A stretch of 64,000 nucleotides of DNA, from positions 4,634-68,633 of the forward strand of contig JAPLCX010000108.1 of NCBI GenBank assembly GCA_026392035.1, given 5' to 3'. A program made the translations under genes and the position numbers. Position 1 is the first letter of the stretch; each line of letters begins with the position of its first letter. Below, piece by piece: positions 2-14,345 of the stretch. Below the pieces are notes generated by a model that had not been told where the DNA came from, did not search any database, and saw only the letters and a list, made by a program, of their open reading frames with translations. This DNA comes from Candidatus Auribacterota bacterium (GTDB taxonomy: Bacteria; Auribacterota; Tritonobacteria; UBA1439).

Positions 2-631
2 CCGCTGCGTCCCACAGAACCAGGGCCGGAACCCCCGCCTCCGCCACCGGATCTCTCAGGCTACACAAGTGTGATACCAGACCCGCTCAAAACTATCCGC
101 GAGACGCCTGTAGGCGCTCTTGGGATGAAGATTGACCGGAAGCTGTTTGAACGTTTTGAAGAAACCGTAAAGGCCGATCCGGTAGCCCGGGAGAGCTATG
201 AGCGAGGCGATATTAAAGAAGCGGAGGCCTATGTCGTAGCGAATCTGTTCGACAAACCGGAATGGTTCTTCAGCCTTGAAAAATTACGCAAATCAGTGCA
301 TCTGGATCGGCGGATTACTCTACGGGAAATTCTGGCCAAGGTATTCGGCGAGATTGACCGATTCAAAACCAAGGATGAACTCCTGGAGGAGGAACTGTCG
401 AAATTCGTTTCCATCCACAAGCCGGATGCGACACGCATGCCGGTAATACGGCAATTTTTCAAGGCATACCTGACCGATGGCGGTGTCCGGGGCATTGTGG
501 ATTCCCGCGAATTTCCCAGGCTGGCTGATAATCCCAAAGTATCGCTGGCTGACTTGCGATTCCTTGGGGAATGGCGGGATCGTATTCCTGAATATGTGAA
601 GGACTACGTATCTCTGAACCAGTTTGTGTGA
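2..631 (+). CDS. hsdR: Type I restriction enzyme R subunit (HsdR), C-terminal fragment; gene is open to the 5' edge of the window
   Basis: Reading frame is open from nt 2 (no in-frame stop before the listed M at 71). Pro-rich linker then a helical C-terminal domain typical of HsdR C-termini. Sits immediately upstream of an hsdM/hsdS gene. Assignment rests on family resemblance and context only. Confidence 0.5.
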   Translation, partial: PLRPTEPGPEPPPPPPDLSGYTSVIPDPLKTIRETPVGALGMKIDRKLFERFEETVKADPVARESYERGDIKEAEAYVVANLFDKPEWFFSLEKLRKSVHLDRRITLREILAKVFGEIDRFKTKDELLEEELSKFVSIHKPDATRMPVIRQFFKAYLTDGGVRGIVDSREFPRLADNPKVSLADLRFLGEWRDRIPEYVKDYVSLNQFV

Positions 632-743: not shown

Positions 744-1316
744 ATGAATAGCAATCGAGTGTCCATACCAGCGGAGCGAATCGAGGGATTGATTCTTCTG
801 ATACGGGGGCAGAGGGTTATGTTGGATTCCGATCTGGCAAAGTTGTATGAAGTCACGACATCAAACCTGAACAAGGCGGTCAGACGTAATCCCGAGCGTT
901 TTCCGTCCGATTTCATGTTCCAGCTTAATGCATCCGAGTACCGGTCTTTAAGATTCCAATTTGGAATCTTAAAGCGCGGCCAGCACTCAAAATACCTGCC
1001 ATTGGCCTTCACCGAGCAGGGCGTTGCGATGCTCTCCAGCGTATTGAACAGTCCTCGCGCTATACAGGTAAATGTAGCCATTATGCGCGCTTTTGTACGC
1101 TTGCGCCAATTACTTGCCACACATGCAGGCCTGGCCCGAAAGCTTGAGGAGATGGAGCGCCAGTACGACCGGCAATTTCAGGTTGTGTTTGAAGCTATCC
1201 GTGAACTAATGAAGCCTCCGGAACCAAAAAGACGGCAGATCGGGTTCCATGTCCGGGAACGGCGTGCCTCATATTCCGCTCGACGGAAAAAGGTTGTGAA
1301 ACATGCTCGACGCTGA
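744..1316 (+). CDS. ORF6N (KilA-N-like) DNA-binding domain protein
   Basis: N-terminus [42 protein letters not shown] matches the ORF6N domain signature. Basic C-terminal tail. Inserted between hsdR and hsdM. Confidence 0.75.
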
Positions 1317-1428
1317 AACCAAAGCGAGAATAGATTCCGCCCGCGACATCCTGGTGGGCGCTATATTACCCTCTCCCTCTGGAGGGAGAGGGCGGGGTGA
1401 GGGGGAATATTTTGCTCTTCGTGACTGA
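1303..1428 (+). pseudogene. Duplicated 5' fragment of hsdM ([19 protein letters not shown]...) followed by an unrelated 22-codon tail and a stop
   Basis: nt 1303-1360 are ~88% identical to the true hsdM start at 1452-1510 (MLDTDTKARIDSARDILVGK). The ORF6N stop codon lies inside this copy. Confidence 0.5.
1360..1395. other. GC-rich inverted repeat/hairpin (CCCTCTCCCTC-TGGA-GGGAGAGGG) in the spacer between the hsdM 5' duplicate and the real hsdM
   Basis: Perfect 9-11-bp arms seen directly in the sequence. No T-tract follows, so it is not a canonical terminator. Confidence 0.4.
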
Positions 1429-1451
1429 TTCTGCATGAAAGGAAGCAATGT

Positions 1452-3929
1452 ATGCTTGATACTGATACAAAAGCGAGAATAGACTCCGCCCGCGATATCC
1501 TGGTGGGCAAGGTGCCTGATCCAAAATCCCAGGTGGAGCAAATCACCATCGCCCTGATCTACAAGTTCATGGACGACATGGACCGCCAGTCGGAGGAACT
1601 GGGCGGCAAAGCGGCTTTCTTCTCCGGTGAGTTCAAGAGATACGCTTGGAATCACCTACTCGATAATCGCCACAGCGGCCATGAGCGGTTACTTCTCTAC
1701 GCCGAAGGCATAGAGAAGATGAATACCAATAAGAACATCCCGCAGCTTTTCCGCGATATCTTCAAGGGCGTCTTTCTTCCCTACCGCGATCCAGAAACGC
1801 TGAATCTTTTTCTTAAAGAGATTAATGGATTCACGTATGATCACAGCGAAAGGCTTGGGGATGCGTTTGAATATCTCCTCTCTGTTCTCGGAAGCCAGGG
1901 AGAAGCCGGACAGTTCCGAACACCGAGGCACATTATTGACTTCATTGTCTCAATCGTCAGCCCTCAGAAAAATGAAACTATCCTCGATCCCGCATGTGGC
2001 ACCGCGGGATTCCTGATCTCATCTTACAAGCATATCCTAATCCAGAACACCAAGGATCGCCCCGGAGATAAACTTACGGCCGACGAACGCGGCAGGTTAA
2101 TGACAAATTTCTGCGGCTATGACATATCGCCCGATATGGTGCGATTGTCCCGCGTAAATATGTACCTGCATAGTTTTGCAAATCCGCGCATCCACGAATA
2201 TGACACATTGACAAGTGAGGAGCGATGGGACGAGCGCTATGACGTGATCCTGGCTAATCCGCCTTTTATGTCACCCAAAGGTGGTATTCGGCCCCATAAT
2301 CGCTTCAGCATCAAAGCTACCCGAAGCGAGGTGCTGTTTGTTGACTATATCGCTGAGCATCTCAACGTCAATGGCCGCGCCGGCATCATCGTGCCGGAGG
2401 GAATTATTTTTCAGTCGCAGAATGCTTATAAGAAACTGCGGAAGATGCTCGTCGAGAATTATCTCTGGTGTGTGGTTTCGCTCCCCGGCGGTTGTTTTAA
2501 TCCTTATTCCGGAGTGAAGACGAGCATCCTCCTCCTCGACAAATCGCTGGCAAAGCGGATAGATGAAATCATGTTTGTGAAGATAGGGGATGATGGGTTT
2601 GATCTCGGCGCGCAGAGGAGGCCGATTGAGGAGAATGATTTGCCCGAGGCACTGGCGCTAATTAAGAAATGGAAGGAAGGTAACAAAGAAGTTCAAGAGG
2701 CGCAAAAGAAATTGGCTCATGCCGTCAGCTGCAAACAGCTCCTTGAATCCGGCGATTGCCACCTCTCCGGCGATCGCTACCGGGATAAGGGTATTCGAGT
2801 CAGCGGCAAGTGGCCGATGGTGCCCATTGGAAAACTGTGTGAGAACATTAAAAATGGCCTCACTCCAAAAGAACATAGAGGACGTGTTGTCTATATTGGG
2901 CTAGAAAATATTGTATCAAACTCCGGTGAGCTTGTCGGAGAATTTGAATCCGAAATTAAAGCAATAAAGAGCACAAAACTGCGTTTTCAGAAAAATAATA
3001 TCTTATATGGCAAACTGCGTCCCAATCTTAATAAGGTTTGGCTTGCGGACCGTGATGGAATTTGCTCCACCGATATAATGGTTTTGCGCTTCAATTCGAT
3101 CCTTGCAAACCCTTCTTTATTTGTACATATCCTTAGGCAAAAGATCTTCAATAACAAAGTGCTCCAGGGACTTGTTGGAGCACAATTGCCAAGAATCAAA
3201 TTCTCATACTTTGTATCTATAGATGTCCCCCTTCCCCCTCTGGAAGTACAGGAGCAGATTGTCGCGGAACTGAACGGCTATCGGAAGATCATCGAAGGCG
3301 CAAAGCAAATCATCGCCAATTACAAACCGACCATTAAGATTAATTCGGCCTGGCCGATAGGTGTTTTGAAAGAGGTGGCAGAGATTAATCGATTAACAAT
3401 TGACCCGGGTGAGAAATATGGCAGCCGAGAATTTTGCTATGTCGACATTTCCTCTGTAGAAAACGGTACCGGGAGAGTTATGTTCGGTAATCGCATAAAA
3501 GGTAGTGAAGCTCCCAGTAGGGCACGCCGTGTCGTCGCCAAAGGAGACGTTTTGCTTTCAACGGTTAGGCCAAACTTGAAAGCATTCGCCTGCCTCGATG
3601 AGGTCCCGGATGATGCTGTTGCTTCAACCGGGTTTGCTGTTTTGACACCTCGTGCAAACAGAGTATTAAGTCGGTTCCTCTGGCATCTACTTTTCGATGA
3701 TTGCGTCCTGGCGCAAATGCTAAGCAGGATGGGGCGAGGTGCATATCCGAGCATAAATCAATCAGATGTTGAATCCCTGAAAGTCCCCCTTCCGCCCCTC
3801 GACATCCAACACCAGATCGTTGACACGCTCGAATCGGAGCGGGCGATAGTAGACGCGAACCGGAAGCTGGTCGAAATGTTCGAGCAAAAGATTCAGGCCA
3901 AGCTCGCAGAAATATGGGGTGAAGAATAG
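1452..3929 (+). CDS. hsdM: Type I R-M methyltransferase-specificity fusion: N6-adenine MTase (HsdM) domain fused in frame to a two-TRD HsdS
   Basis: HsdM motifs: LDPACGTAGFLI (motif I) and LANPPFMSPKGG (NPPF, motif IV). The HsdS part begins near aa 440 (from ~nt 2770) with TRD1. The central conserved repeat is LPPLEVQEQIVAELNGYRKIIEGAKQII. TRD2 and the C-terminal conserved repeat LPPLDIQHQIVDTLESERAIVDANRKLVEMFEQKIQAKLAEIWGE follow. One uninterrupted 825-codon ORF. RBS AAGGAAG upstream. Confidence 0.85.
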   Translation: MLDTDTKARIDSARDILVGKVPDPKSQVEQITIALIYKFMDDMDRQSEELGGKAAFFSGEFKRYAWNHLLDNRHSGHERLLLYAEGIEKMNTNKNIPQLFRDIFKGVFLPYRDPETLNLFLKEINGFTYDHSERLGDAFEYLLSVLGSQGEAGQFRTPRHIIDFIVSIVSPQKNETILDPACGTAGFLISSYKHILIQNTKDRPGDKLTADERGRLMTNFCGYDISPDMVRLSRVNMYLHSFANPRIHEYDTLTSEERWDERYDVILANPPFMSPKGGIRPHNRFSIKATRSEVLFVDYIAEHLNVNGRAGIIVPEGIIFQSQNAYKKLRKMLVENYLWCVVSLPGGCFNPYSGVKTSILLLDKSLAKRIDEIMFVKIGDDGFDLGAQRRPIEENDLPEALALIKKWKEGNKEVQEAQKKLAHAVSCKQLLESGDCHLSGDRYRDKGIRVSGKWPMVPIGKLCENIKNGLTPKEHRGRVVYIGLENIVSNSGELVGEFESEIKAIKSTKLRFQKNNILYGKLRPNLNKVWLADRDGICSTDIMVLRFNSILANPSLFVHILRQKIFNNKVLQGLVGAQLPRIKFSYFVSIDVPLPPLEVQEQIVAELNGYRKIIEGAKQIIANYKPTIKINSAWPIGVLKEVAEINRLTIDPGEKYGSREFCYVDISSVENGTGRVMFGNRIKGSEAPSRARRVVAKGDVLLSTVRPNLKAFACLDEVPDDAVASTGFAVLTPRANRVLSRFLWHLLFDDCVLAQMLSRMGRGAYPSINQSDVESLKVPLPPLDIQHQIVDTLESERAIVDANRKLVEMFEQKIQAKLAEIWGEE

Positions 3930-4094: not shown

Positions 4095-5336
4095 ATGTTT
4101 GGACAAAAGTATTTTGAACAACGTATTGGCGACATTTTCCATTTATCTCCAATCCCGTACTTGTGTGGCGATGGTGAGTTATCCAATTCACATGAATCAT
4201 GCAAAGTGCGGTGGGAACTGAATGTTCCTATCACCGGGGAACCACTTCTTGTCATTAGTACTGGCAAAGTGATCACGCCTGATAGTTGGATTACAGCAGA
4301 CCGACAGTTTGTTGAGTGGATATTGACAGGAGCCACAGATGATAAATTATTCTTGATCGCAGCGGAAGCAGTCATATTAAATAGAATGAAGCCTTCATCT
4401 GATGAGCAGCCGAATTATTATTTTAGCCAGTTTCGGCAGATGGATATTTTGCGAAGTTCATCAAAAGCAGTTACTAAATTAGAGGCAATAACGCTTAATT
4501 TTACATTTGAAGGTACAGATAAATTCCAAATAGCAGTCGCTGGAAGGCAAATCCACTTCCGACAAAGCAAGCAGTATAGCGAGTTAAGGGAGCTTATAAA
4601 GATCAAACGGATTGATCGCGCCTTAATTTCTGAGATCCATGTTCCACTACTTGAAGGAGAGACGCTAGAAATGGGGATAGAGATCCTATTCACGCTAGGA
4701 TGGTTAATTTCTTTTCTCACCTTAAACCGAGTTTCAACTCCATTGCTTCGCCTGCTAGACAATGAAACGTTGTGTGGTTGGAGAATTATGGAGCTCCGTT
4801 CTTATCCTTATCATCCTAGTGAAATCATTGATAATAAAATAATCCCAGAAGGCATCAAGAAATGCCTCGAATCAGTATATGATAATTTTGTGAGGTTTAG
4901 TAAATCGCTAGAGCTGGAACGACTCGTAGATATGATTTTGACAGCGTATCAGGAGGGGCTTGTGGAATTCAAAGTGGCTGGGCTTATTTTAGGATATGAA
5001 CTATTTTGTACGTCTTTTCTGAAATATAAAGGCAGACCGCTGACTCTAGAATCTAACATCGAGCAGAAGCTAAATGGTGTAAATAGTTATCTTCGCTTTA
5101 TACCCGCGCATTTGCTTAACGAAAGACTGCGGAAAGATATTCGCAACCCGCTTTTTCACGAAGGATTGATTATTGGGATTGATACAAGGAGTTTATTTCG
5201 ATGGTATAAAGAATATTTGGATCTATTGATAGAAATGCTTTTATTTATTTTAGGCTATAAAGGGAATTTTATTTCACGCGTAGATTATAAGCCCATTCCG
5301 GTCCCGATATCCGCAGGCAAATCCAATATCCCTTGA
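4095..5336 (+). CDS. Hypothetical protein (413 aa); first gene of the AT-rich two-gene island; no recognisable catalytic or NTP-binding motif
   Basis: Long ORF in a markedly AT-richer stretch than the flanks. Codirectional with the SIR2-like gene 70 nt downstream. No Walker A, TIR-like or HEPN-like motif seen. Confidence 0.6.
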   Translation: MFGQKYFEQRIGDIFHLSPIPYLCGDGELSNSHESCKVRWELNVPITGEPLLVISTGKVITPDSWITADRQFVEWILTGATDDKLFLIAAEAVILNRMKPSSDEQPNYYFSQFRQMDILRSSSKAVTKLEAITLNFTFEGTDKFQIAVAGRQIHFRQSKQYSELRELIKIKRIDRALISEIHVPLLEGETLEMGIEILFTLGWLISFLTLNRVSTPLLRLLDNETLCGWRIMELRSYPYHPSEIIDNKIIPEGIKKCLESVYDNFVRFSKSLELERLVDMILTAYQEGLVEFKVAGLILGYELFCTSFLKYKGRPLTLESNIEQKLNGVNSYLRFIPAHLLNERLRKDIRNPLFHEGLIIGIDTRSLFRWYKEYLDLLIEMLLFILGYKGNFISRVDYKPIPVPISAGKSNIP

Positions 5337-5405: not shown

Positions 5406-6605
5406 ATGAATATGAAAATCATACTTTTTCTGGGATCAGGAGTATCATTTCCGACGGGATTGCCATGTGCGAAAAAGGTAACAGATTCTATTCTCAGCGA
5501 TGAATGGCATAGTTGTAGTGATGGGATATTTCGACCGGGGCCAGAACCGAATCAGTATTTTCGAGACGATAATCTCGCGCCTTGTCTTCAGCAGTTTCTA
5601 AAATTGCTTAAGGAATATGCTGACGCTTATTATTCAAATAAGCATAGGCCAGAGTCGAATTACGAAGATTTATATTACCTCGCGCAGCAGATAGAGGATG
5701 AGGAGTTGGGAGAGATATTTAATCCAGCCATACGGCCTTTTGTCGAAGAGATAAAAAACAAGACTGTAGCATTATGCAGTCGGGAACAGTTTGGTATCAA
5801 AGACTTAACTTTTAGAGAGCTAGGCTGGAAAGCTTGCATATTTATTGAATATGCTTTATGGCAACTTTTGGGTACTAACAATAATCCTGAAGGGATGAAT
5901 CTCATTAAAGAGCTTGCGCTATCGCCAGAAGTTGAAGCTTTAGATATTCTCACTTTGAATCATGACATTCTAGTAGAAAGATTCCTTAGTCGTAACGGAA
6001 TTCAATATGCTGATGGTTTTGGGCTACCTGATGGAGATGTTAGGTTTTTTAAGCCATCGACATATGATGAGGATATCAAGGTTCGCCTTTTCAAACTTCA
6101 TGGCTCAATCAACTGGTTTTGGCTTAGACGCCGTGAGGGTGATATTGCCATTGCTGAATATGGCATCCCAATAAATAATGACATTTGGCACTTTAAAGAT
6201 GCAAAAGGTGAGAACATTGATAACTTGATGGGCGGGCCCAGAATTTTGATAGGGACTTATAACAAGATACCGGATTATGGTCAGGGCATATTTTCAGGAG
6301 TACACCTCAAATTTCAGTCTATTCTCCCAGAACGTGATTTGATGGTTATGTCCGGCTATGGCTGGAATGATAGGGGGATATCTCTCCGCCTTCGAGAATG
6401 GCTTAATTCTTCAATGGATAAACGCCTTTATCTATTGCATCAAAATCCTGAATCAGAAATTCGCGATAAATCAAAAAGTGGAATGTGGCACTGGTATGAG
6501 CCATGGGTAAAAGAGGGAAGGCTTGTGCCAATTAAGCAATGGTTGTGTGATATTAAATTACCTGAACTAATCGGAATAATTAAAACCCATCGAAGTGTGC
6601 ATTAA
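5406..6605 (+). CDS. SIR2-like protein (SIR2_2 / DHS-like NAD-binding family), standalone, 399 aa
   Basis: Rossmann start ILFLGSGVSFPTGLP. Catalytic-pair region LTLNHDILVE (Asn) ... FKLHGSINWF (His), arranged as in ThsA/DSR-type SIR2 domains. Later LMVMSGYGWNDRGI motif. The whole protein is SIR2_2-like. Confidence 0.75.
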   Translation: MNMKIILFLGSGVSFPTGLPCAKKVTDSILSDEWHSCSDGIFRPGPEPNQYFRDDNLAPCLQQFLKLLKEYADAYYSNKHRPESNYEDLYYLAQQIEDEELGEIFNPAIRPFVEEIKNKTVALCSREQFGIKDLTFRELGWKACIFIEYALWQLLGTNNNPEGMNLIKELALSPEVEALDILTLNHDILVERFLSRNGIQYADGFGLPDGDVRFFKPSTYDEDIKVRLFKLHGSINWFWLRRREGDIAIAEYGIPINNDIWHFKDAKGENIDNLMGGPRILIGTYNKIPDYGQGIFSGVHLKFQSILPERDLMVMSGYGWNDRGISLRLREWLNSSMDKRLYLLHQNPESEIRDKSKSGMWHWYEPWVKEGRLVPIKQWLCDIKLPELIGIIKTHRSVH

Positions 6606-6663
6606 CTCCGTTCAACGACTATAAAGATCAAAGAGGCAGCCCCTCTTAAACAGCGTTTAGAAA

Positions 6664-6697
6664 CTTTTGGAGCGCGCAAAACCAAGAGCCTGCGGAG
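6664..6697. repeat. Repeat family R1, copy a (CTTTTGGAGCGCGCAAAACCAAGAGCCTGCGGAG)
   Basis: Near-identical copy at 7183-7217. Seen directly. Confidence 0.6.
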
Positions 6698-6821
6698 CCG
6701 AGGTCAGAGGTTTCTTTTCCTGCACCCGTGGAGCCCGTGGGGGAAATCGAAGGGGATCACTAAAAACAGCGGGAATTTTTTCTCTCATTCTAATCCCAAT
6801 TTTAGCATTGCTGCCCAACCC

Positions 6822-6875
6822 ATCCGCCTTGACTCACGCAAATGTTATTGACCTCATCCATGAACGCTCAACCCC
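6822..6875. repeat. Repeat family R2, copy a (ATCCGCCTTGACTCACGCAAATGTTATTGACCTCATCCATGAACGCTCAACCCC); contains two -35-like hexamers TTGACT/TTGACC
   Basis: Second copy 105 bp downstream (6927-6980). Partial third copy 6981-7006. Confidence 0.6.
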
Positions 6876-6926
6876 GCCGCCCTGCTGCCCATTCCCTCCC
6901 GCATCTATAATTGGAATGCTAAAAAG

Positions 6927-6980
6927 ATCCGCCTTGACTTACGCGAATGTAATTGACCTCACCCCTGAGCGCTCAACCCA
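6927..6980. repeat. Repeat family R2, copy b
   Basis: ATCCGCCTTGACTTACGCGAATGTAATTGACCTCACCCCTGAGCGCTCAACCCA, ~85% identical to copy a. Confidence 0.6.
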
Positions 6981-7182
6981 TCCTCCTTGACTCGCATGAA
7001 AGTTATCGGCATACGCATTTAAGCGTCCACGACACCTCAATAAAGCTTCCCCATCATAAGCGGAGTGGAAGCGGAGAGGGTACGGAGAGGGTGTCTCCCT
7101 GGGTGAGAAAAGAACCCCCCGCACCATCTCACGGTGATGCGGGGGCTTTCCAGAGCCACCGGGGATTATGCCTTTTAATGAG

Positions 7183-7217
7183 CTTTTAGAGCGCGCGAAA
7201 AACCTGGAGCCTGCGGA
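7183..7217. repeat. Repeat family R1, copy b
   Basis: CTTTTAGAGCGCGCGAAAAACCTGGAGCCTGCGGAG; pairs with 6664-6697. Confidence 0.6.
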
Positions 7218-7688
7218 GAGATTCCCGAGACTAAAGTCTCGGCTACGAGTCTCGGCTACCAAGCCCGGCCACGCCCCGGTCCCGGTGGGACTTCCCTTCG
7301 GCGGGGTCCCTACCGGGAGAGGAGCAAAGAAAAACAGCACAGGTCATGAGTCGGAGTCGCAAGGAGCGTGACAGCTATGCTAAGGCACCTCAACTAAGCT
7401 CGGTGACTTCGTCGCGCTCCTTGCTTCACATATGGAGCCAGCGCGGCCTGTCGAGTCGGGAGTGGTATGCTCCGAAGATCCTTCGCTGCGCTCAGGAGCT
7501 CCGCGGGGACGGGCGAGCAATCAATATGCCTTCAGGAACTTGAGATTCCGCTTCCGGGAGCGGTGGATTATGTTAGGCAAGATCACCGGGAACAAGGCCC
7601 CTCGGCTATGCTCGGACTCTCCGCTCGTTCGCAAAAGCTCACTCTCTCCGACTGGTAATGGGGCCTCGATTTGAGCCATTTTTTCATT

Positions 7689-7733
7689 TCGAACCAACTC
7701 CGACCGGGAAACTGGTCGGGGTTGGTTCGTTTT
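7689..7733 (+). terminator. Intrinsic terminator on + strand: long hairpin CGAACCAACTCCGACC-GGGAAACT-GGTCGGGGTTGGTTCG followed by TTTTG
   Basis: 15-bp interrupted stem plus T-run, read directly. Marks the 3' end of a + strand transcript from the gene-free region. Confidence 0.6.
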
Positions 7734-7863
7734 GCCTCCGGCTTCGCCTCCGGAACACACGCGCGCGTTGAAGAGATTTGAATAAATGAAAAGGGATAGG
7801 CTGCTCCCCGAATCTGATTACCACGAGCGTGTCGAAAAGATTCCTGCGGCGGAGGCAAAATAC

Positions 7864-7895
7864 AAAAGGCCCTTATAAAGGGCCCTTTGCATTTT
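7864..7895. terminator. Bidirectional intrinsic terminator (AAAAGGCCCTT-ATAA-AGGGCCCTTT flanked by T/A runs)
   Basis: Hairpin with T-runs on both strands, immediately downstream of the minus-strand lipoprotein gene ending at 7968. Confidence 0.6.
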
Positions 7896-7967
7896 AGCGC
7901 CATGACCGCCGATGTGATTTTCTCCGGCTCCAGCCGGCGGCGCGGTCACAGGAGAAAAGGCTGACGC

Positions 7968-8291
7968 TCAGATAACCGTGTCGAAAACCATCGCGATCAT
8001 CCGAAACGGCAGTGCCACGACATCCCCGATCAGGATGAAAAACCTCCCCACGATACTGTGGGATTCCTTCTCCTTTATGATCGTTGTCTCTTTGACTACC
8101 TTCCCGGGCTCTCCCGGCGTGGGCTCCGTTTTATAGACGGTTTCTTCCTTGGTGACAGACTTGGCAGATGAGCCGCACCCGGTCATGAGAAGCGACGCCA
8201 TGAAGATCACCACCACACCCAGGATTATCCCACGATGCCAGCCTGCCGTTGATCGCCATATATTCATTTCGCTCCTCTCTTTAGGCAACAA
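7968..8291 (-). CDS. Small lipoprotein (signal peptide with lipobox LLMTGC), unknown function
   Basis: Hydrophobic N-terminus ending in LMTGCGSS. Lys/Glu/Thr-rich mature part. Confidence 0.45.
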   Translation of the reverse strand: MLPKERSEMNIWRSTAGWHRGIILGVVVIFMASLLMTGCGSSAKSVTKEETVYKTEPTPGEPGKVVKETTIIKEKESHSIVGRFFILIGDVVALPFRMIAMVFDTVI

Positions 8292-8311
8292 CCCATAACG
8301 TGCAGCAATAG

Positions 8312-8728
8312 TTATTCCTCATGCCCTCCATGTTCTTCACGCTCTTCATGCCCTTTATGCTCGCCCTTGTGCCCCTTCGCGCATTTCTCGGACATCTTCT
8401 TATACATGGGGCATGCGGCCTGCATCTCCATCATCATTTTCTGCATACCTTCCATGTCCATTTTAATTTCCGCTTCCTTCTGCACATTCAGATCCTTGTC
8501 GTATTTAATGAGCTTATTGCCCGTCATCACCACGACGCCGCCGTCCGCGGTCGCGACGATCGACCGCTTCATCATCTTCTCAGCCATCTCGGCGTGCATG
8601 GGGCAGCAGTAGCCCATTCCCTCTTTCTCCATCGTGTGCAGCCATGCTTTTCCGTGACACTTCATTGGCCCGGCGCACCCCAGGCATACCATCGCCAATG
8701 CCACGCCTGCCGCGAGAACTCTTTTCAT
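8312..8728 (-). CDS. Secreted Met/His/Cys-rich protein, probable periplasmic metal (Cu/Ni/Co)-binding protein
   Basis: Start moved to internal Met (MKRVLAAGVALAMVCLGCAG signal peptide), which has a GGAGG RBS. The upstream 54 codons of the listed ORF are GC-rich read-through. Mature part has CHGK, CCPMH and a His-rich tail GHKGEHKGHEEREEHGGHEE. Confidence 0.55.
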   Translation of the reverse strand: MKRVLAAGVALAMVCLGCAGPMKCHGKAWLHTMEKEGMGYCCPMHAEMAEKMMKRSIVATADGGVVVMTGNKLIKYDKDLNVQKEAEIKMDMEGMQKMMMEMQAACPMYKKMSEKCAKGHKGEHKGHEEREEHGGHEE

Positions 8729-9023
8729 GCCTTCTTCCTCCCTCTTGACAGTTGCCTCCGCCCATCTCCTCACACACCCGGCGCCGGGCGTGTGCACCCT
8801 GCAATGATTCAAATGTTGTTGAATGTATGTGGCGCTGCGCGCGCACCTCCTTTCTCTTCTGCAGCACCTGAGCTTGAAAAGGTGTCCCAATATCTCTCGT
8901 GCTATATTTTAATACAGTTACCCCCGATTGGGGAAATCTTTTTGATGTGAATCATCGGGTGTGGTTCATGCGACGTACGCCGATAGCGCAATAATGACTC
9001 TTTCCTGCGCGAGGGGCCGTTGA

Positions 9024-10502
9024 TCACTGCACCCGCCCGAGGTAGTACTCCACCGGCGCGCGGTCGTCGGTGAGGACGGGCACGTCTGCCCCCACCTCGC
9101 TCTTCCAGAGGTGGGTCAGGTAGCGGTTCGTTTCCTCATCGGCGCTCTCCGGCGCGGGCTCGCGATTCGACTTCAGCGCCGCGAGAATGATGTTCTGTAC
9201 CTCGCGCCCGTCCTCCGGATCATCGACGGGAAAAAGCATGACGCGCGGGAAGACTTCCGCACAGGTGGCGTACTCCGCCCTGGTGAATCTCCCGTTCATT
9301 CCGTCGACGGCGCCGATGATATTCACGAGCAGCACGCCCCCCTCGGCCAGCATGCCGCTCATTCTCCGCGCTGCCTCAATTGTCGTGAGCTGATACGGCA
9401 GGCAGTTCGCGTCCCTGAACGCGTCGATAATGATCACGTCGTACCTGTTGCCGCTCCTGTTGAGGAAGGTTCTGCCGTCCTCGTGGTGGACGGTCAGGCG
9501 GGGGTTGTCCCGCAGATTGAAATATTTTCTGGAGATCTCTGTCAGCATCGGATCGATCTCCACCACGTCGATGCGCGCATCGGGATATCGCCTGAGAAAT
9601 TCTTTCGGGTAGGCGTAGGCCGCCCCGCCGATCATGAGTGTGCGTCTGAAACCGGTGGCGAAGTGCTCGGCGAGGCGGAAAAACTTCATGTAGTCGAACA
9701 CGAAATCCTCGCCGTCGAGGTACATGGCGGACTCCTGCCCGTAGGGATCCGTGGAGAGGGCGAGGATCGGCCTCCCCGTCACCTCGTCCGTGTCCCTATA
9801 TATCCAGACCCGGTTATAGGGAGTATCAATGTCGAGCATCACATCCCTCAGCCCTCCACCCAGCATGGAACCGCCGGCCGCCAGGAAGAGAAACAGTATG
9901 CCGGCCCTCGCCTTCCCGAGCCGGCCGCTGAACACCGCGAGGGAAAGAAGCCCAAGGACCGCCGAAGTCAGCAGGAGCAGACGCACGTTGCCAAGTAAGG
10001 GTATCAGGACAAATCCCGCGAGGAAGGTGCCGGTGATGCTTCCGATGGCGGAGAGGGCGTACAGCCTCCCGATGGCCGACCCCGAACTGGCGACATACCG
10101 TATTTTAAGTCTGGCCGCGTACGGGGAGACCATCCCCAGAAACACATTCGCCGGCGCAAAGAGCAGGAGGGCGCCGCACAGGGAGAGGGTTCCGTTGCCG
10201 CTGACCAAGGCATTCAGCGAGGAGAGGAGTTTATCTTTTAGGAGCGCAGTCAGCCCGACGCAGGAGGCCGCCAAGAATACCAGCAGAGAGAGGAGCCGCG
10301 CATCTGGCCGCCTGTCGGCGATTCTTCCACCCCACCAGTAGCCGATGCTCAGGCTCGCCAGGATCACGCCGACCAGATTAGTCCACACGTACAGCGACGT
10401 CCCCGCGTAGGGGGCGAGCACCCTGGAGCCCGTGAGCTCGAAGACCATGACCGCGGCACCGCAGACGAAAACCGCCAGTTCGCACGCCCACCTTCTCATC
10501 AT
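9024..10502 (-). CDS. Fused polytopic membrane domain / spermidine-synthase-like (PABS-type methyltransferase fold) protein
   Basis: ~7 predicted TM helices at the N-terminus, then TLMIGGAAYAYPKEF ... RIDVVEIDPMLTEISRKYF ... YDVIIIDAF, resembling the spermidine synthase core. Confidence 0.7.
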   Translation of the reverse strand: MMRRWACELAVFVCGAAVMVFELTGSRVLAPYAGTSLYVWTNLVGVILASLSIGYWWGGRIADRRPDARLLSLLVFLAASCVGLTALLKDKLLSSLNALVSGNGTLSLCGALLLFAPANVFLGMVSPYAARLKIRYVASSGSAIGRLYALSAIGSITGTFLAGFVLIPLLGNVRLLLLTSAVLGLLSLAVFSGRLGKARAGILFLFLAAGGSMLGGGLRDVMLDIDTPYNRVWIYRDTDEVTGRPILALSTDPYGQESAMYLDGEDFVFDYMKFFRLAEHFATGFRRTLMIGGAAYAYPKEFLRRYPDARIDVVEIDPMLTEISRKYFNLRDNPRLTVHHEDGRTFLNRSGNRYDVIIIDAFRDANCLPYQLTTIEAARRMSGMLAEGGVLLVNIIGAVDGMNGRFTRAEYATCAEVFPRVMLFPVDDPEDGREVQNIILAALKSNREPAPESADEETNRYLTHLWKSEVGADVPVLTDDRAPVEYYLGRVQ

Positions 10503-10703
10503 CTATCCCCGTAGACGTTTTTCATAACACTTTTGTCAGGAGTAAGATACAACCTAAATATTTCTGGCGCGCAGAAGGGATATTTAGTTTGCATCGATCT
10601 CTCCTGCAGCGAGATGCGTACAACGTCTACATAACCGTCCGGCAGCTCCTGAACATAGCGGCATCTTCGATTATGCCCAGGACTCGTGCTGCGTTAGCAA
10701 GGA

Positions 10704-11945
10704 TTATTGACTGATAGAACAGGTCCCCCCTCCTGTTTTTGTTGTATATGCTTTCTTGTTGTAGGGAAGCCTCATCAATAGCATGCCCATAAGGCAGTTG
10801 TTCGTTATGCCCGCGAAAATGAGCCCGCATGAGATCAGGATTGAAATCCAGATGAACGCGCCATGTACAAACCTCGCCAGTACTATGCCAAGCAATACCA
10901 CACTTCCTGCAATAATTCTGACCTGCCGCTCCAGCGATATGGCAGGCTCGCCTTTGATCACAGGCAGTTTCTCCTTTTGCCAACGCGCAATGCCTCCGTC
11001 CATTACCTTTACAGAATGAATGCCGGATTGCAGCAGCATATCGGCTGCCATGGGAGAGCGATTCCCGCTATGGCAGAAGACCACGTAGGTGTGCCCCGCC
11101 CGGCTCAGGTCTTCTACTTTTGAGGCAAGCGTATCGATGGGGATATTGAGCGAATGATCAATGTGGACCTCATTAAATTCCAGCGGAGAGCGAACATCCA
11201 GTAAGATAACCCGAGGGTCTCTGGATGCCAGCGCTCGCGCATCTTCAGGTGAAACCATTTCCAGAAGTGAGGCTTCACCCCTTTGGTTCACACGTATAAT
11301 GTTGTCGATGTTGAACGGTTTGGGGAGCTGTTTTGAACGGGCATTTTTAACAAATGATTCCTTGCTCGTTTCCTTGAGGAAGGGGTTGCTTTTCTTTTCC
11401 CTGGCGATAGTTGAAGATCTATTCCCGTGGTAATCGTGCGCGGGGAACAGCATGGTTTCATCGGGTAATGCTTTCAGCCTCTGCAGCGTATCAAACATAG
11501 CTTCAGGAGAGCCGTTCTGGAAATCCGTGCGCCCCACGCTGCCGATTAAAAGCACATCTCCGGTAAATAATCTGCCTTCTCCATAGATGCTCATGGCATC
11601 ATCGGTATGACCGGGCGTATATATCACCTTGCAGCGGCATGAACCGAAGGCTATTTCCTCATTGTCCTTCAGTCTCCTGTCCGCCACACTGGATATGGCC
11701 TTTTCATGCATTAAAACCGGGGCCCTGTACCTCTTCTTCAGCACCGCGGCCAGAGAGAAGTGGTCCGCGTGCGTGTGCGTATCCATTATATATTTGAGAC
11801 CCAGCCGCTTCTTTGTCAGATATCCGGCATATTCCTCCAGCAGACTTATGTGCGGATCAATGATGACCGCCTCGTTCCGGGAACTTAAGATATACGAGTA
11901 GCAGCTGCCGGCGCTGAATTGCTTTGACGCAAAATCCTTGCTCAT
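10704..11945 (-). CDS. MBL-fold metallo-hydrolase (persulfide dioxygenase-like) fused to a rhodanese domain and a C-terminal small membrane domain
   Basis: HTHADH zinc motif, downstream His/Asp ligands, rhodanese active-site loop CHSGNRS, and a terminal hydrophobic DUF2892-like segment. Confidence 0.8.
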   Translation of the reverse strand: MSKDFASKQFSAGSCYSYILSSRNEAVIIDPHISLLEEYAGYLTKKRLGLKYIMDTHTHADHFSLAAVLKKRYRAPVLMHEKAISSVADRRLKDNEEIAFGSCRCKVIYTPGHTDDAMSIYGEGRLFTGDVLLIGSVGRTDFQNGSPEAMFDTLQRLKALPDETMLFPAHDYHGNRSSTIAREKKSNPFLKETSKESFVKNARSKQLPKPFNIDNIIRVNQRGEASLLEMVSPEDARALASRDPRVILLDVRSPLEFNEVHIDHSLNIPIDTLASKVEDLSRAGHTYVVFCHSGNRSPMAADMLLQSGIHSVKVMDGGIARWQKEKLPVIKGEPAISLERQVRIIAGSVVLLGIVLARFVHGAFIWISILISCGLIFAGITNNCLMGMLLMRLPYNKKAYTTKTGGGTCSISQ

Positions 11946-12819: not shown

Positions 12820-13023
12820 ATGGCTACTGGAAACCTGAAGGTGTCATGTAGGCGCTGTAATGCTTGCGGAAAAGTGACCAAGTGTGAAAGGAATGGCATG
12901 ATCTGGGGGTGCGGTGATCTGATCATGGTCTTTATGACAGTGGGCCTCTGGTGCATCGCTCGTTTTATCGTTAATGAAGTAATAAATCCCTGGCGCTGTT
13001 CTGAATGCGGGAAGCGAGTCTGA
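12820..13023 (+). CDS. Small zinc-ribbon membrane protein (CxxC ... TM helix ... CxxC), 67 aa
   Basis: CRRCNACGK ... hydrophobic LIMVFMTVGLWCIARFIV ... CSECGK. AGGGAG RBS 6-8 nt upstream of the ATG. Sits directly upstream of the Sel1 gene. Confidence 0.4.
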   Translation: MATGNLKVSCRRCNACGKVTKCERNGMIWGCGDLIMVFMTVGLWCIARFIVNEVINPWRCSECGKRV

Positions 13024-13037
13024 AACATAGGCGATAT

Positions 13038-14345
13038 ATGACCCGAAAAAATATATCCATCTTTTGCGCCGTTTTTATTTTTGCGATATTCATGCTGCAC
13101 TTTTTACCATTCTCCAAAGATAAATCCTTGAATAATGCCGGACAAAAGATTGTCTCCACCACTAGAAGTCTTTTAGATTCAAATGAAATGCAGGTTGGTA
13201 AAGCTGCTTATGACCGCAAAGATTACGTAGCAGCCTTCCAAAACTTCTCCAAGGCCGCAAAAAAAGGTGATGCAGAAGCACAATATAAACTCGGGTTGAT
13301 GTATGACGAAGGCCACGGTGTGCCGAAAAATTATGTCGAGGGCGCCAAATGGTACCGCAAAGCCGCAGAACAGGGCTTTGCACCGGCGCAGTCTAATCTC
13401 GGGTTTATGTATGTCAACGGCCAAGGCGTGTCGCAGGATTATAGTGCAACGTATGTCCATGGCCAAAGCGTGTCTCCAGATTATGTTGAAGCAGTCAAAT
13501 GGTACCGCAAAGCCGCAGAACAGGGCTTTGCAGAGGCGCAAAATAATCTCGGGGCAATGTATTACAAAGGCCAAGGCGTGCCGCAGGATTACACAGTGGC
13601 CGCCGACTGGTACCGCGCAGCCGCAGAGCAGGGCAATGCAATTGCACAGTTGAATCTAGGGTCAATGTATTACCACCACTTGGGTGTGCCAAAAGATTAC
13701 ACAGAGGCATTCAAATGGTACCACAAAGCCGCGGAACAGGGTGTTGCACAGGCGAAGGCTATGCTCGGGTCAATGTATTACACAGGCCAAGGCGTGCCGC
13801 AGGATTACACAGAGGCCGCCAAATGGTACCACAAAGCCGCAGAACAGGGTGTTGCACAGGCGAAGGCTATGCTCGGGGCAATGTATTACACAGGCCAAGG
13901 CGTGCCGCAGGATTACACAGAGGCCGCCAAATGGTACCGCAAGGCAGCGGAACAGGGCGTTGCAGAGGCACAGGCTTGGGCCAGACGTAGAAAATGGACG
14001 ACAAATGATCTAGCAATTTTATGTGTGGGAAAAACGAAACAAGAAATTCGTGGAGCATTTGGAGAACCGGATAATACCCGATGGGCAACCATGCGGCGGC
14101 TGGATTTATCAAAATATGATCCTGAGTATCATGATCAAAGTAAAATGGCATTCAGATGGATTTATAAAAATATGGATATCAACAATCTGGATCTCGGGAC
14201 AAAAGAAAGTGTTCTCTGTATCTGGTTTTTCTATAGAGAGGGATACATTGCTACCAGTATAAAGACTATGAATTCATCAACGTATAGGGATTTGCTGCAT
14301 GTAGAATTTGAAAATGGTTATGGTTCCGGTCCCAGCATCTTCTGA
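13038..14345 (+). CDS. Sel1-repeat (TPR-like) protein with N-terminal signal/anchor
   Basis: At least eight tandem Sel1 units of the form [35 protein letters not shown]. Start placed at the internal Met before the hydrophobic segment. Confidence 0.8.

Follow-up and report, generated by a model that had tools for sequence, protein, structure and literature searches.

Accessory genes are known in type I restriction-modification (R-M) operons, examples being prrC in the prr locus of E. coli and the rlo genes in the hsd loci of Campylobacter jejuni. Type II R-M systems such as PvuII and Esp1396I are regulated by controller (C) proteins. Homology-facilitated illegitimate recombination and the exchange of alleles within type I R-M families are also known. 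These are the precedents against which we compare a locus found in a stretch of 64,000 nucleotides (nt), here called the window, of contig JAPLCX010000108.1 from a Candidatus Auribacterota bacterium. By its predicted genes, the locus is a type I R-M operon with intact reading frames in the order hsdR, ORF6N and hsdMS, where ORF6N is a gene for a putative DNA-binding protein and hsdMS is a fusion of hsdM and hsdS (Table 1). The 5' end of hsdMS is present twice, as a relic (copy A) and as the start of the live gene (copy B), with a spacer between the two. We lean toward reading this arrangement as a recombination scar that imported a divergent hsdM 5' end together with a foreign leader. The ORF6N gene contains, in addition, a palindrome that is conserved among ORF6N genes and apparently new.

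The locus resembles the prrC and rlo operons in having a small non-R-M gene between the hsd genes of a type I operon. It differs from prrC in that ORF6N is predicted to bind DNA and is not an anticodon nuclease, and from both kinds of operon in that the relic start and the foreign leader are specific to the lineage of the window. The likeness to C-protein systems lies in the presence of a small putative DNA-binding gene in an R-M operon, its ancestral overlap with the next gene and the palindromes just upstream of it. However, ORF6N lacks an Xre-type helix-turn-helix domain (its only Pfam match is ORF6N, and a low-confidence structure model has no significant fold match), the system is of type I and not type II, ORF6N precedes the methylase-specificity gene and not the nuclease gene, and the palindromes are tied to ORF6N genes generally, including those outside R-M loci.

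The direct repeat comprises 57 nt (1303-1359 and 1452-1508), 50 of which are identical; the 58th base differs (G/A), and the longest exact match between the copies is 14 nt. A degenerate 39-nt core of the repeat has only these two sites in the window, and shuffled sequences are expected to have none. The repeat begins exactly at the ATG and extends to nt 57/58. Upstream of the two ATGs, the best local alignment over 25, 40, 60 or 91 nt is no better than in shuffles. A preliminary description of this DNA had placed the stop codon of ORF6N inside a diverged copy of the hsdM start, and the stop (TGA, 1314-1316) does fall within copy A. The same description had the ribosome-binding region duplicated or re-created along with the hsdM 5' end; the coding 5' end is indeed repeated from the ATG onward, but the two ribosome-binding regions are unrelated, and the spacer is 91 nt and not 95 bp.

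The seven mismatches between the copies are not distributed evenly. Six are at codon position 3 (p ~0.007 by our binomial estimate for at least six of seven at one codon position), five are synonymous and five are clustered in nt 6-18. The bias toward codon position 3 points to two coding alleles that evolved separately, or to selection on copy B, rather than to neutral decay. At the five sites in nt 6-18, the deviating copy is B, as judged by the related loci L010 and L056 and several other alleles. The first 20 nt of copy A are those of the single-copy hsdMS start of L010, and its nt 1-17 are those of L056. At nt 33 and 45 it is copy A that differs from both L010 and copy B, and both copy-A states recur in other alleles. 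Variant states of both copies occur in other members of the family. The N-terminus encoded by copy B, MLDTDTKARIDSARDILVG, is identical to that of the closest HsdM relatives (P0121, P0122 and P0129, 90-91% identical); it starts with MLDTDT, the commonest form in the wider family.

The arrangement recurs without change in independent assemblies. Seven Logan contigs (several ERR153022xx runs and SRR20698651) show no difference from the window across both copies and the spacer, as far as 1559-1565, and two further Logan contigs match the window up to 1516. Logan contigs equal the window exactly wherever they overlap it, from position 1 and including the 3' end of hsdR, and Logan contigs from many different runs encode an ORF6N protein identical to that of the window.

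Related loci were collected by scanning Joint Genome Institute (JGI) metagenomes with a degenerate pattern for KARIDSARDILVG, which returned 65 loci with one match each. The closest relative of the ORF6N protein (P0001, 93% identical) is encoded on a 37.9-kb contig and on L010. On the 37.9-kb contig, hsdR (840 amino acids, aa) is followed by ORF6N (8001-8573) and hsdMS (8560-11055, 831 aa), the latter two overlapping by 14 nt. L010 is collinear with the window from hsdR into hsdMS except for one 149-nt gap in L010. The overlap of ORF6N and hsdMS, ATGCTCGACGCTGA, is single-copy in L010, the 37.9-kb contig and L056, where the junction reads gttgtgaaacATGCTCGACGCTGAAAC. No diverged second copy of the hsdM start was found upstream in any of the 65 loci; such a duplicate, conserved in related genomes as coding sequence of a different gene, had been named in advance as grounds for abandoning the interpretation. 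In about 20 of the 65, ORF6N directly precedes hsdMS, abutting it or overlapping it by 8 nt, without a relic; more than 20 others have ~5-10 nt between the end of hsdR and the hsdMS ATG. Throughout, the hsdM 5' end is strongly conserved in DNA and differs almost only at third codon positions. These comparisons support an ancestral state in which ORF6N overlapped the hsdMS start by 14 nt, in agreement with the preliminary description, which had called for a search for the unduplicated state in relatives. Parsimony over the wider family, with one insertion set against several deletions, shows the duplication to be derived and lineage-specific.

Some features of the wider family are recorded here in their own right. 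The hsdM-hsdS fusion (~800-870 aa) with a separate hsdR is present throughout (full-length homologues in L014-L075), and the first ~55 HsdM residues and their DNA are near-invariant across loci that are otherwise only 50-85% identical. The hsdR|hsdM junction is a hot spot of insertion in this type I family (L011-L075). Depending on the locus, it holds ORF6N, a KilA-N protein of ~310 aa, a PDDEXK_3 (GxxExxY-type) protein of ~125 aa, a 23S_rRNA_IVP four-helix-bundle protein of ~140 aa, or an IVP protein with a Top1-type zinc ribbon of ~255 aa. On a Treponema plasmid the order is hsdM, a winged helix-turn-helix gene, ORF6N, hsdS and Fic.

The spacer, which is joined to ATGCTTGATACTGATACA, has no similarity above that of shuffles to hsdM nt 59-149, to the 3' end of ORF6N or to the hsdR-ORF6N intergenic region. 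It is absent from the rest of the window, from the 65 related loci and from the viral contigs searched, and no other leader in the hsdM family resembles it. Judged by these comparisons, the spacer is of foreign origin. Because it is unrelated to hsdM nt 59-149, a simple tandem duplication of 149 nt is excluded; only 57-58 nt are repeated.

A GC hairpin in the spacer was already part of the preliminary description, and its arms (1369-1379 and 1382-1392, 11 nt each) are 100% complementary. The hairpin belongs to a 35-nt motif that covers 35 of the 91 spacer bases and has the form CCCTCTCCCT-N4-AGGGAGAGGG-N-GGGGTGAGGG (also in L076-L086). An exact-pattern scan of one genome per species found the motif in 11 loci of unrelated phyla: single matches in Rhizobium, Phytobacter, Thermomicrobiales, Armatimonadetes, Endomicrobia, WOR-3 and two other alphaproteobacterial metagenome-assembled genomes (MAGs), and three copies in one uncultured MAG, CAYJUC01. 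The flanks are not shared between loci, several copies sit between long open reading frames (ORFs), and a complementary partner hairpin (CCCTCACCC...CCCTCTCCC) is often found a few tens of bases upstream. Short GC-rich motifs in unrelated genomes, repeated within one MAG and often accompanied by a partner hairpin, are reminiscent of repetitive extragenic palindromic (REP) sequences and bacterial interspersed mosaic elements. The motif differs from these in being single-copy in the window and inside an operon, between a relic and a live start, with no associated transposase seen. REP sequences or miniature inverted-repeat transposable elements would have many copies in one genome; the counts for the motif are one copy in the 64-kb window, three in CAYJUC01 and one in each of the eight other genomes. 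One of the matching loci, L086, also has an ORF6N gene, 2.5 kb from the hairpin; we take this co-occurrence as coincidence.

The idea of an attenuator, or of a separate promoter for hsdMS, finds no support in the computed features of the spacer. No terminator-like site was found on either strand of 550-1700, and no promoter-like site in the spacer. The stem has no adjoining T-run, as an intrinsic terminator or attenuator would have; the first T-rich run is 16 nt past it. As RNA, the hairpin region folds no better than composition-matched shuffles (z -1.5). Four G-runs at 1384-1405 fit the pattern of a G-quadruplex, which could compete with the hairpin. Rfam gave no match at gathering thresholds over the whole window, and its sub-threshold matches in 600-1600 are taken as chance; no tRNA or tmRNA was found in the window.

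A sequence of events that would account for these features is as follows. In the ancestor, the last 14 nt of ORF6N would have overlapped the hsdMS start in a translationally coupled arrangement. A single rearrangement in the lineage of the window would then have inserted 149 bp, through recombination with a divergent hsdM allele bearing a different 5' leader. Of its two junctions, one would have been a homologous crossover within the first ~60-160 nt of hsdM, which are strongly conserved, and the second an illegitimate join to the resident gene at nt 58. Homologous recombination could readily anchor in a 5' end as conserved as that of hsdM, and alleles with nothing but coding sequence in common would be expected to give a repeat that starts at the ATG with unrelated DNA upstream. 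The event would have left the resident start as a dead stub of 19 codons fused to 22 spacer codons, the relic remaining coupled to the ORF6N stop. The 91-nt foreign leader would have brought the widespread 35-nt GC-rich palindromic motif and a good Shine-Dalgarno sequence, followed by an intact hsdMS. The gene could now initiate at its own ribosome-binding site, and its translation may still benefit from ribosomes that terminate at the end of the relic ORF, 23 nt upstream. The local fold pairs the Shine-Dalgarno sequence GAAAGGAAG with GCUCUUC (1413-1419), which is inside the relic ORF, so translation of the relic could also open the hsdMS start, although this fold is not significant (no better than shuffles, z -1.2).

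As in homology-facilitated illegitimate recombination, one end of the rearrangement is in conserved homologous sequence, whereas unrelated DNA adjoins abruptly at the other. The assignment is by resemblance: in the present case both the recombination mechanism and any effect on expression are what we infer from the scar. We regard the structure as a tolerated scar and not as an evolved regulator or attenuator, because the relic ORF and the spacer occur only in identical copies of one lineage.

Several observations weigh against an origin by recombination. A donor, with the spacer directly upstream of hsdM, was not found in JGI metagenomes, in the genome scan, in viral contigs or among the closest HsdM relatives. 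The relatives of the MLDTDTKA type that were inspected sit 10 nt after hsdR and have only ~80% DNA identity. Past nt 18, copy B and the rest of the gene are equally close to L010. The imported patch could thus be only ~110 nt long, or else selection acting on the spot could have produced the cluster of five changes in nt 6-18. The fold that would sequester the Shine-Dalgarno sequence is, as noted, no better than shuffles. Finally, the window, L010 and L056 are roughly equidistant, and the polarity is without a clean outgroup.

The serious rival is a local event, in which the hsdMS 5' end suffered a break or a replication slip and, on repair, 58 nt were duplicated and a short piece of filler DNA with a REP-like GC palindrome was captured. 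Copy B would then have changed at the five sites in nt 6-18 under selection, for example on being freed from the overlap with ORF6N, and copy A would have drifted. In its favour, no donor allele was found in the searches made. A local origin also fits the resemblance of copy B to L010 past nt 18, and the clustering of changes is less surprising when one considers that codons 4-5 are variable positions of the family N-terminus. A small element that is mobile or repeated would be compatible with the distribution of the hairpin motif, which many unrelated genomes contain and one MAG contains three times. However, a random duplication does not predict a left edge exactly at the ATG, the motif is single-copy in the window and accounts for only part of the spacer, and the states of copy A at nt 33 and 45, where it departs from L010 and copy B, are third-position states of other alleles. 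We consider the local event a good deal less probable than recombination with a divergent allele, though it deserves to be taken seriously.

A selected regulatory leader appears improbable. The 41-codon ORF would act as a leader peptide or a relay of translational coupling, and the hairpin (or a G-quadruplex) together with the stem sequestering the Shine-Dalgarno sequence would tune hsdMS relative to ORF6N and hsdR. The relic ORF does still overlap ORF6N in ATG...TGA form, with 23 nt separating its end from the hsdMS ATG, the Shine-Dalgarno sequence pairs in the local fold with a segment inside the relic ORF, and the region 1290-1480 as a whole folds somewhat better than shuffles (z -2.5). Taken singly, however, neither the hairpin region nor the Shine-Dalgarno stem is better than shuffles, and the spacer has neither a terminator-like or promoter-like site nor an Rfam family. 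The relic ORF is called as a gene in Logan contigs, and it has no family match. It is confined to identical copies of this lineage and, in the absence of sequence variation, gives no sign of constraint. A leader peptide would be expected as a small upstream ORF conserved among relatives, but the relatives are without the 41-aa ORF and function without such a structure.

Slightly less probable still is that the duplicated state is the older one and that homologous deletions between copies A and B gave rise to L010 and other single-copy loci. What recommends this idea is the hsdM start of L010, which is a mosaic with copy-A states in nt 1-18 and copy-B states at nt 33 and 45, exactly what a crossover between the repeats would give; the near-equal distances among the window, L010 and L056 also allow it. 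Against it stand the single-copy 14-nt overlap in L056 and on the 37.9-kb contig as well, the ~20 more distant ORF6N-hsdM loci that abut or overlap without a relic, the lack of a second copy in all 65 loci, and the need for several independent deletions in place of one insertion.

That the structure is an assembly artefact, made by collapsed or chimeric reads from two hsdM-family genes, is suggested by the high conservation of the hsdM 5' end between organisms, by several JGI contigs of the family that look chimeric just past it and by the many Logan contigs ending at 1565 or 1516, within this conserved stretch, but the whole stretch from hsdR through ORF6N, copy A and the spacer into copy B is present without a difference on seven independent Logan contigs, and a k-mer assembler would be unable to invent the path from copy A to copy B because the copies share no exact run longer than 14 nt, which makes the artefact that had been named as a possible refutation extremely improbable. 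The conserved 5' end affects other observations. Six third-position differences after 1516 in L003, and the Logan ends at 1565, had looked like strain polymorphism in the body of hsdM; this was dropped as firm evidence because the conserved 5' end, being common to many organisms, can branch or mis-join the k-mer graph. In eight loci (L029, L035, L040, L050, L011, L016, L054 and L063), an hsdM 5' stub of 36-260 codons is followed by unrelated sequence, and the stubs of L029 and L040 break at one point, after DRQSEELGG. Such stubs in metagenome contigs may reflect genes that are truly truncated, or contigs misassembled as chimeras by way of the conserved 5' end.

A second feature of the locus is inside the ORF6N gene, where the palindrome at 946-974 forms the core of a wider imperfect inverted repeat (941-979) and has an RNA fold z-score of -7.4. 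The ORF6N genes that were compared first all have a palindrome of 25-29 nt at the same codon position, with differing arms. In the larger set (the window and L010-L181), the palindrome is 25-31 nt long, near-perfect and fixed in codon position. Of 76 distinct ORF6N genes taken from metagenome and viral loci, 71 have their best inverted repeat centered at query residues 66-84; its score is at least 9 in 52 of them, and synonymous-codon shuffles average 5.7. All six plasmid genes from cultured bacteria of five phyla (two from Legionella and one each from Sulfuricurvum, Butyrivibrio, Treponema and Haliovirga) have it at codon ~53-70. Altogether, ORF6N genes with the palindrome span at least six phyla. 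No description of it was found in the literature.

To measure covariation of the arms, 41 distinct segments of 37 nt were used, all of them selected for having their best repeat at this site. Among these, 89% of cells pair, compared with 28-47% when the partner column is slid; changes on both sides are seen at 10 of 13 pairs; and the number of double-change cells is 140, compared with 53 +/- 7 in shuffles. Mismatches in the palindrome are no more often G-U than expected, and G-U pairs are rare. For this reason, Watson-Crick constraint at the level of DNA is a better fit than an RNA structure. Three further observations bear on the level of constraint. Genes differ by one frame in how they read the core GGTCACAA-W-TTGTGACC, some giving RSQIVT and others VVTNCD. 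Amino acid changes track base pairing, as in Treponema, where a change from Q to K is matched by one from V to S. In a protein that is otherwise well conserved, the stretch encoded by the palindrome varies most. Because of the two reading frames, the residue changes that follow pairing and the variability of this stretch, the constraint looks to be on the DNA rather than on the protein. In the ORF6N gene of L060, the motif encoded by the palindrome is present twice (RSQFVTSS ... RSQFVTGS), ~20 codons apart, which suggests that the palindromic unit can duplicate within a gene.

Palindromes of the same family are also found upstream of ORF6N genes. Those with the core TCACA-N-TGTGA occur 20-90 nt upstream of many of them (L018, L029, L034, L068, L098, L099, L127-type and L179), and upstream copies are common in viral and Bacteroides-type loci. 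The window has two upstream palindromes, P1 and P2, with fold z-scores of -6.5 and -5.6. P1 is kept upstream of ORF6N in L010, L018, L029, L068 and L034, the last of which has changed on both arms, and the orientation of its central GAT is kept in five loci. The P1 21-mer is present in eight viral contigs. In L087, L088, L091 and L093 it stands by itself, in some cases with T-runs after it, and L089 has it as a tandem array. P2 resembles the intragenic palindrome of ORF6N genes of the L035/L018 type. A controller of the C-protein type would bind a palindromic operator upstream of its own gene; P1 and P2 lie upstream of ORF6N and are conserved in several loci, and P1 does not covary with the intragenic palindrome. 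A simple model of two identical operators finds no support, since the upstream and intragenic palindromes are generally not identical within a locus. Butyrivibrio, where they are near-identical, is the sole exception.

Three readings of the intragenic palindrome are candidates: an operator for an ORF6N dimer, a hairpin or cruciform site, or a quasi-palindrome kept symmetrical by template-switch mutation. A broader and more tentative proposal, which we think possible without holding it probable, is that each ORF6N gene forms a self-contained module whose defining feature is a palindrome of 25-31 bp, at the level of DNA and at a fixed coding position, often with a related copy upstream, and that the relic hsdM start is a by-product of exchange around such a module. 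If the palindrome is part of an operator pair, or a hairpin or cruciform for recombination or regulation, this would explain why ORF6N lands at operon junctions such as hsdR|hsdM.

By their domains, the genes of the operon are those of a type I system. On the Logan contigs, hsdR encodes 840 aa with matches to DEAD, ResIII and SWI2_SNF2, and a faint one to HSDR_N, thus supplying the helicase/translocase (ResIII/DEAD) domains of an HsdR; it terminates at the hsdR stop of the window, and its C-terminal motif KDYV.LN.F is common to the hsdR genes of the family. The gene at the other end is not hsdM alone, as had been supposed. The methylase is there (N6_Mtase), but it is fused to HsdS, so that the N6-adenine methyltransferase and a specificity subunit with two target-recognition domains are in a single polypeptide. 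The 825-aa hsdMS product is intact with all domains present, matches the PADLOC models MTase_I and Specificity_I, and is comparable in length to the full-length homologues of related loci (795-872 aa).

The assignment of the gene at the hsdR-hsdM junction to ORF6N, also made in the preliminary description, holds: the protein matches Pfam PF10543 with E 1.1e-33 and 115.8 bits, above the curated threshold (cut-off 27.8). It matches PHROG 'anti-repressor' families and three PADLOC PDC-S05 models (E 1.4e-55 for the best, then 1e-54 and 7e-41), and 8000 homologues were retrieved. The view that ORF6N genes recur in R-M and other defence loci is supported by the PDC-S05 match (E 1e-55) and by the ~20 of 65 related hsdR-hsdM loci that have one. 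The structure model is poor (predicted local distance difference test score, pLDDT, 62). A Foldseek search of the Protein Data Bank (PDB) with this low-confidence model gave no match below E = 1, and a PDB sequence search with the protein gave nothing meaningful. One representative of PDC-S05 is reported in a preprint (10.1101/2024.09.26.614923) to have lowered plating of T7 and T5 about 1000-fold and that of T4 about 10-fold in E. coli B. The tested representative is described with a Virulence_RhuM domain, whereas the protein of the window has only ORF6N in Pfam. Beyond this preprint, ORF6N is barely mentioned in the searchable literature.

Table 1. Features of the hsdR-ORF6N-hsdMS locus, in window coordinates.
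Feature	Position	Strand	Description
hsdR 3' end	2-631	+	Gene extends beyond the left window edge; stop at 631
Palindrome P1	660-686	+	CTTGAGGTCACA GAT TGTGACCTCAAG; perfect 12-nt arms; 57 nt before ORF6N start
Degenerate palindrome P2	699-725	+	GAGGATGTCGCAA T TTGTGATATCCTC; read from sequence; 11/13 Watson-Crick pairs plus 2 G-T
ORF6N gene	744-1316	+	190 aa; ORF6N domain at residues 17-100, then helical C-terminal half and basic tail
Intragenic palindrome	946-974		CTTTAAGATTCCAA-T-TTGGAATCTTAAAG; perfect 14-nt arms; encodes LRFQFGILK
Copy A	1303-1360	+	Presumed relic of original hsdMS start (19 codons); overlaps ORF6N stop by 14 nt
41-codon relic ORF	1303-1428	+	Copy A plus 22 spacer codons; TGA 1426-1428; from ORF listing
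Spacer	1361-1451	+	91 nt between the copies
35-nt GC-rich motif	1369-1403	+	Hairpin CCCTCTCCCTC/GAGGGAGAGGG plus CGGGGTGAGGG; perfect inverted repeat
Shine-Dalgarno-like sequence	1437-1445	+	GAAAGGAAG; read from sequence; 6 nt before hsdMS ATG
Copy B	1452-1509	+	Functional hsdMS 5' end; from repeat search
hsdMS	1452-3929	+	825 aa; fused hsdM-hsdS; N6_Mtase (E 1e-49), two Methylase_S stretches, weak HsdM_N

Directly downstream of the R-M operon are a gene for a 413-aa protein without a family match (4095-5336) and, next to it, one for a 399-aa SIR2_2-domain protein (5406-6605; PADLOC SIR2 / Aga_SIR2 models). The two may form a two-gene defence module. The following ~1.3 kb (6650-7960) has only short ORFs of at most 133 aa, several short hairpins and no Rfam or tRNA match, and includes a 63-nt direct repeat (6822-6884 and 6927-6989, 84% identical). 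Farther along, a tandem array (13496-13976) of 108-nt units, 4.5 copies with 79% matches, is inside an ORF (13005-14345); going by NCBIfam matches, the units are Sel1/TPR-like protein repeats.

The duplication scar itself is ordinary. It offers a clean natural example of how a tightly coupled gene pair of a defence operon can be separated yet stay functional, with the conserved 5' end of hsdM probably acting as a seam for exchange; as context this is of use, though it is not surprising. ORF6N is among the commonest unexplained genes of defence islands and mobile elements (PADLOC PDC-S05). The palindrome inside the gene therefore matters more than the scar, as it gives a concrete handle on what ORF6N proteins recognize or on how their genes are controlled.

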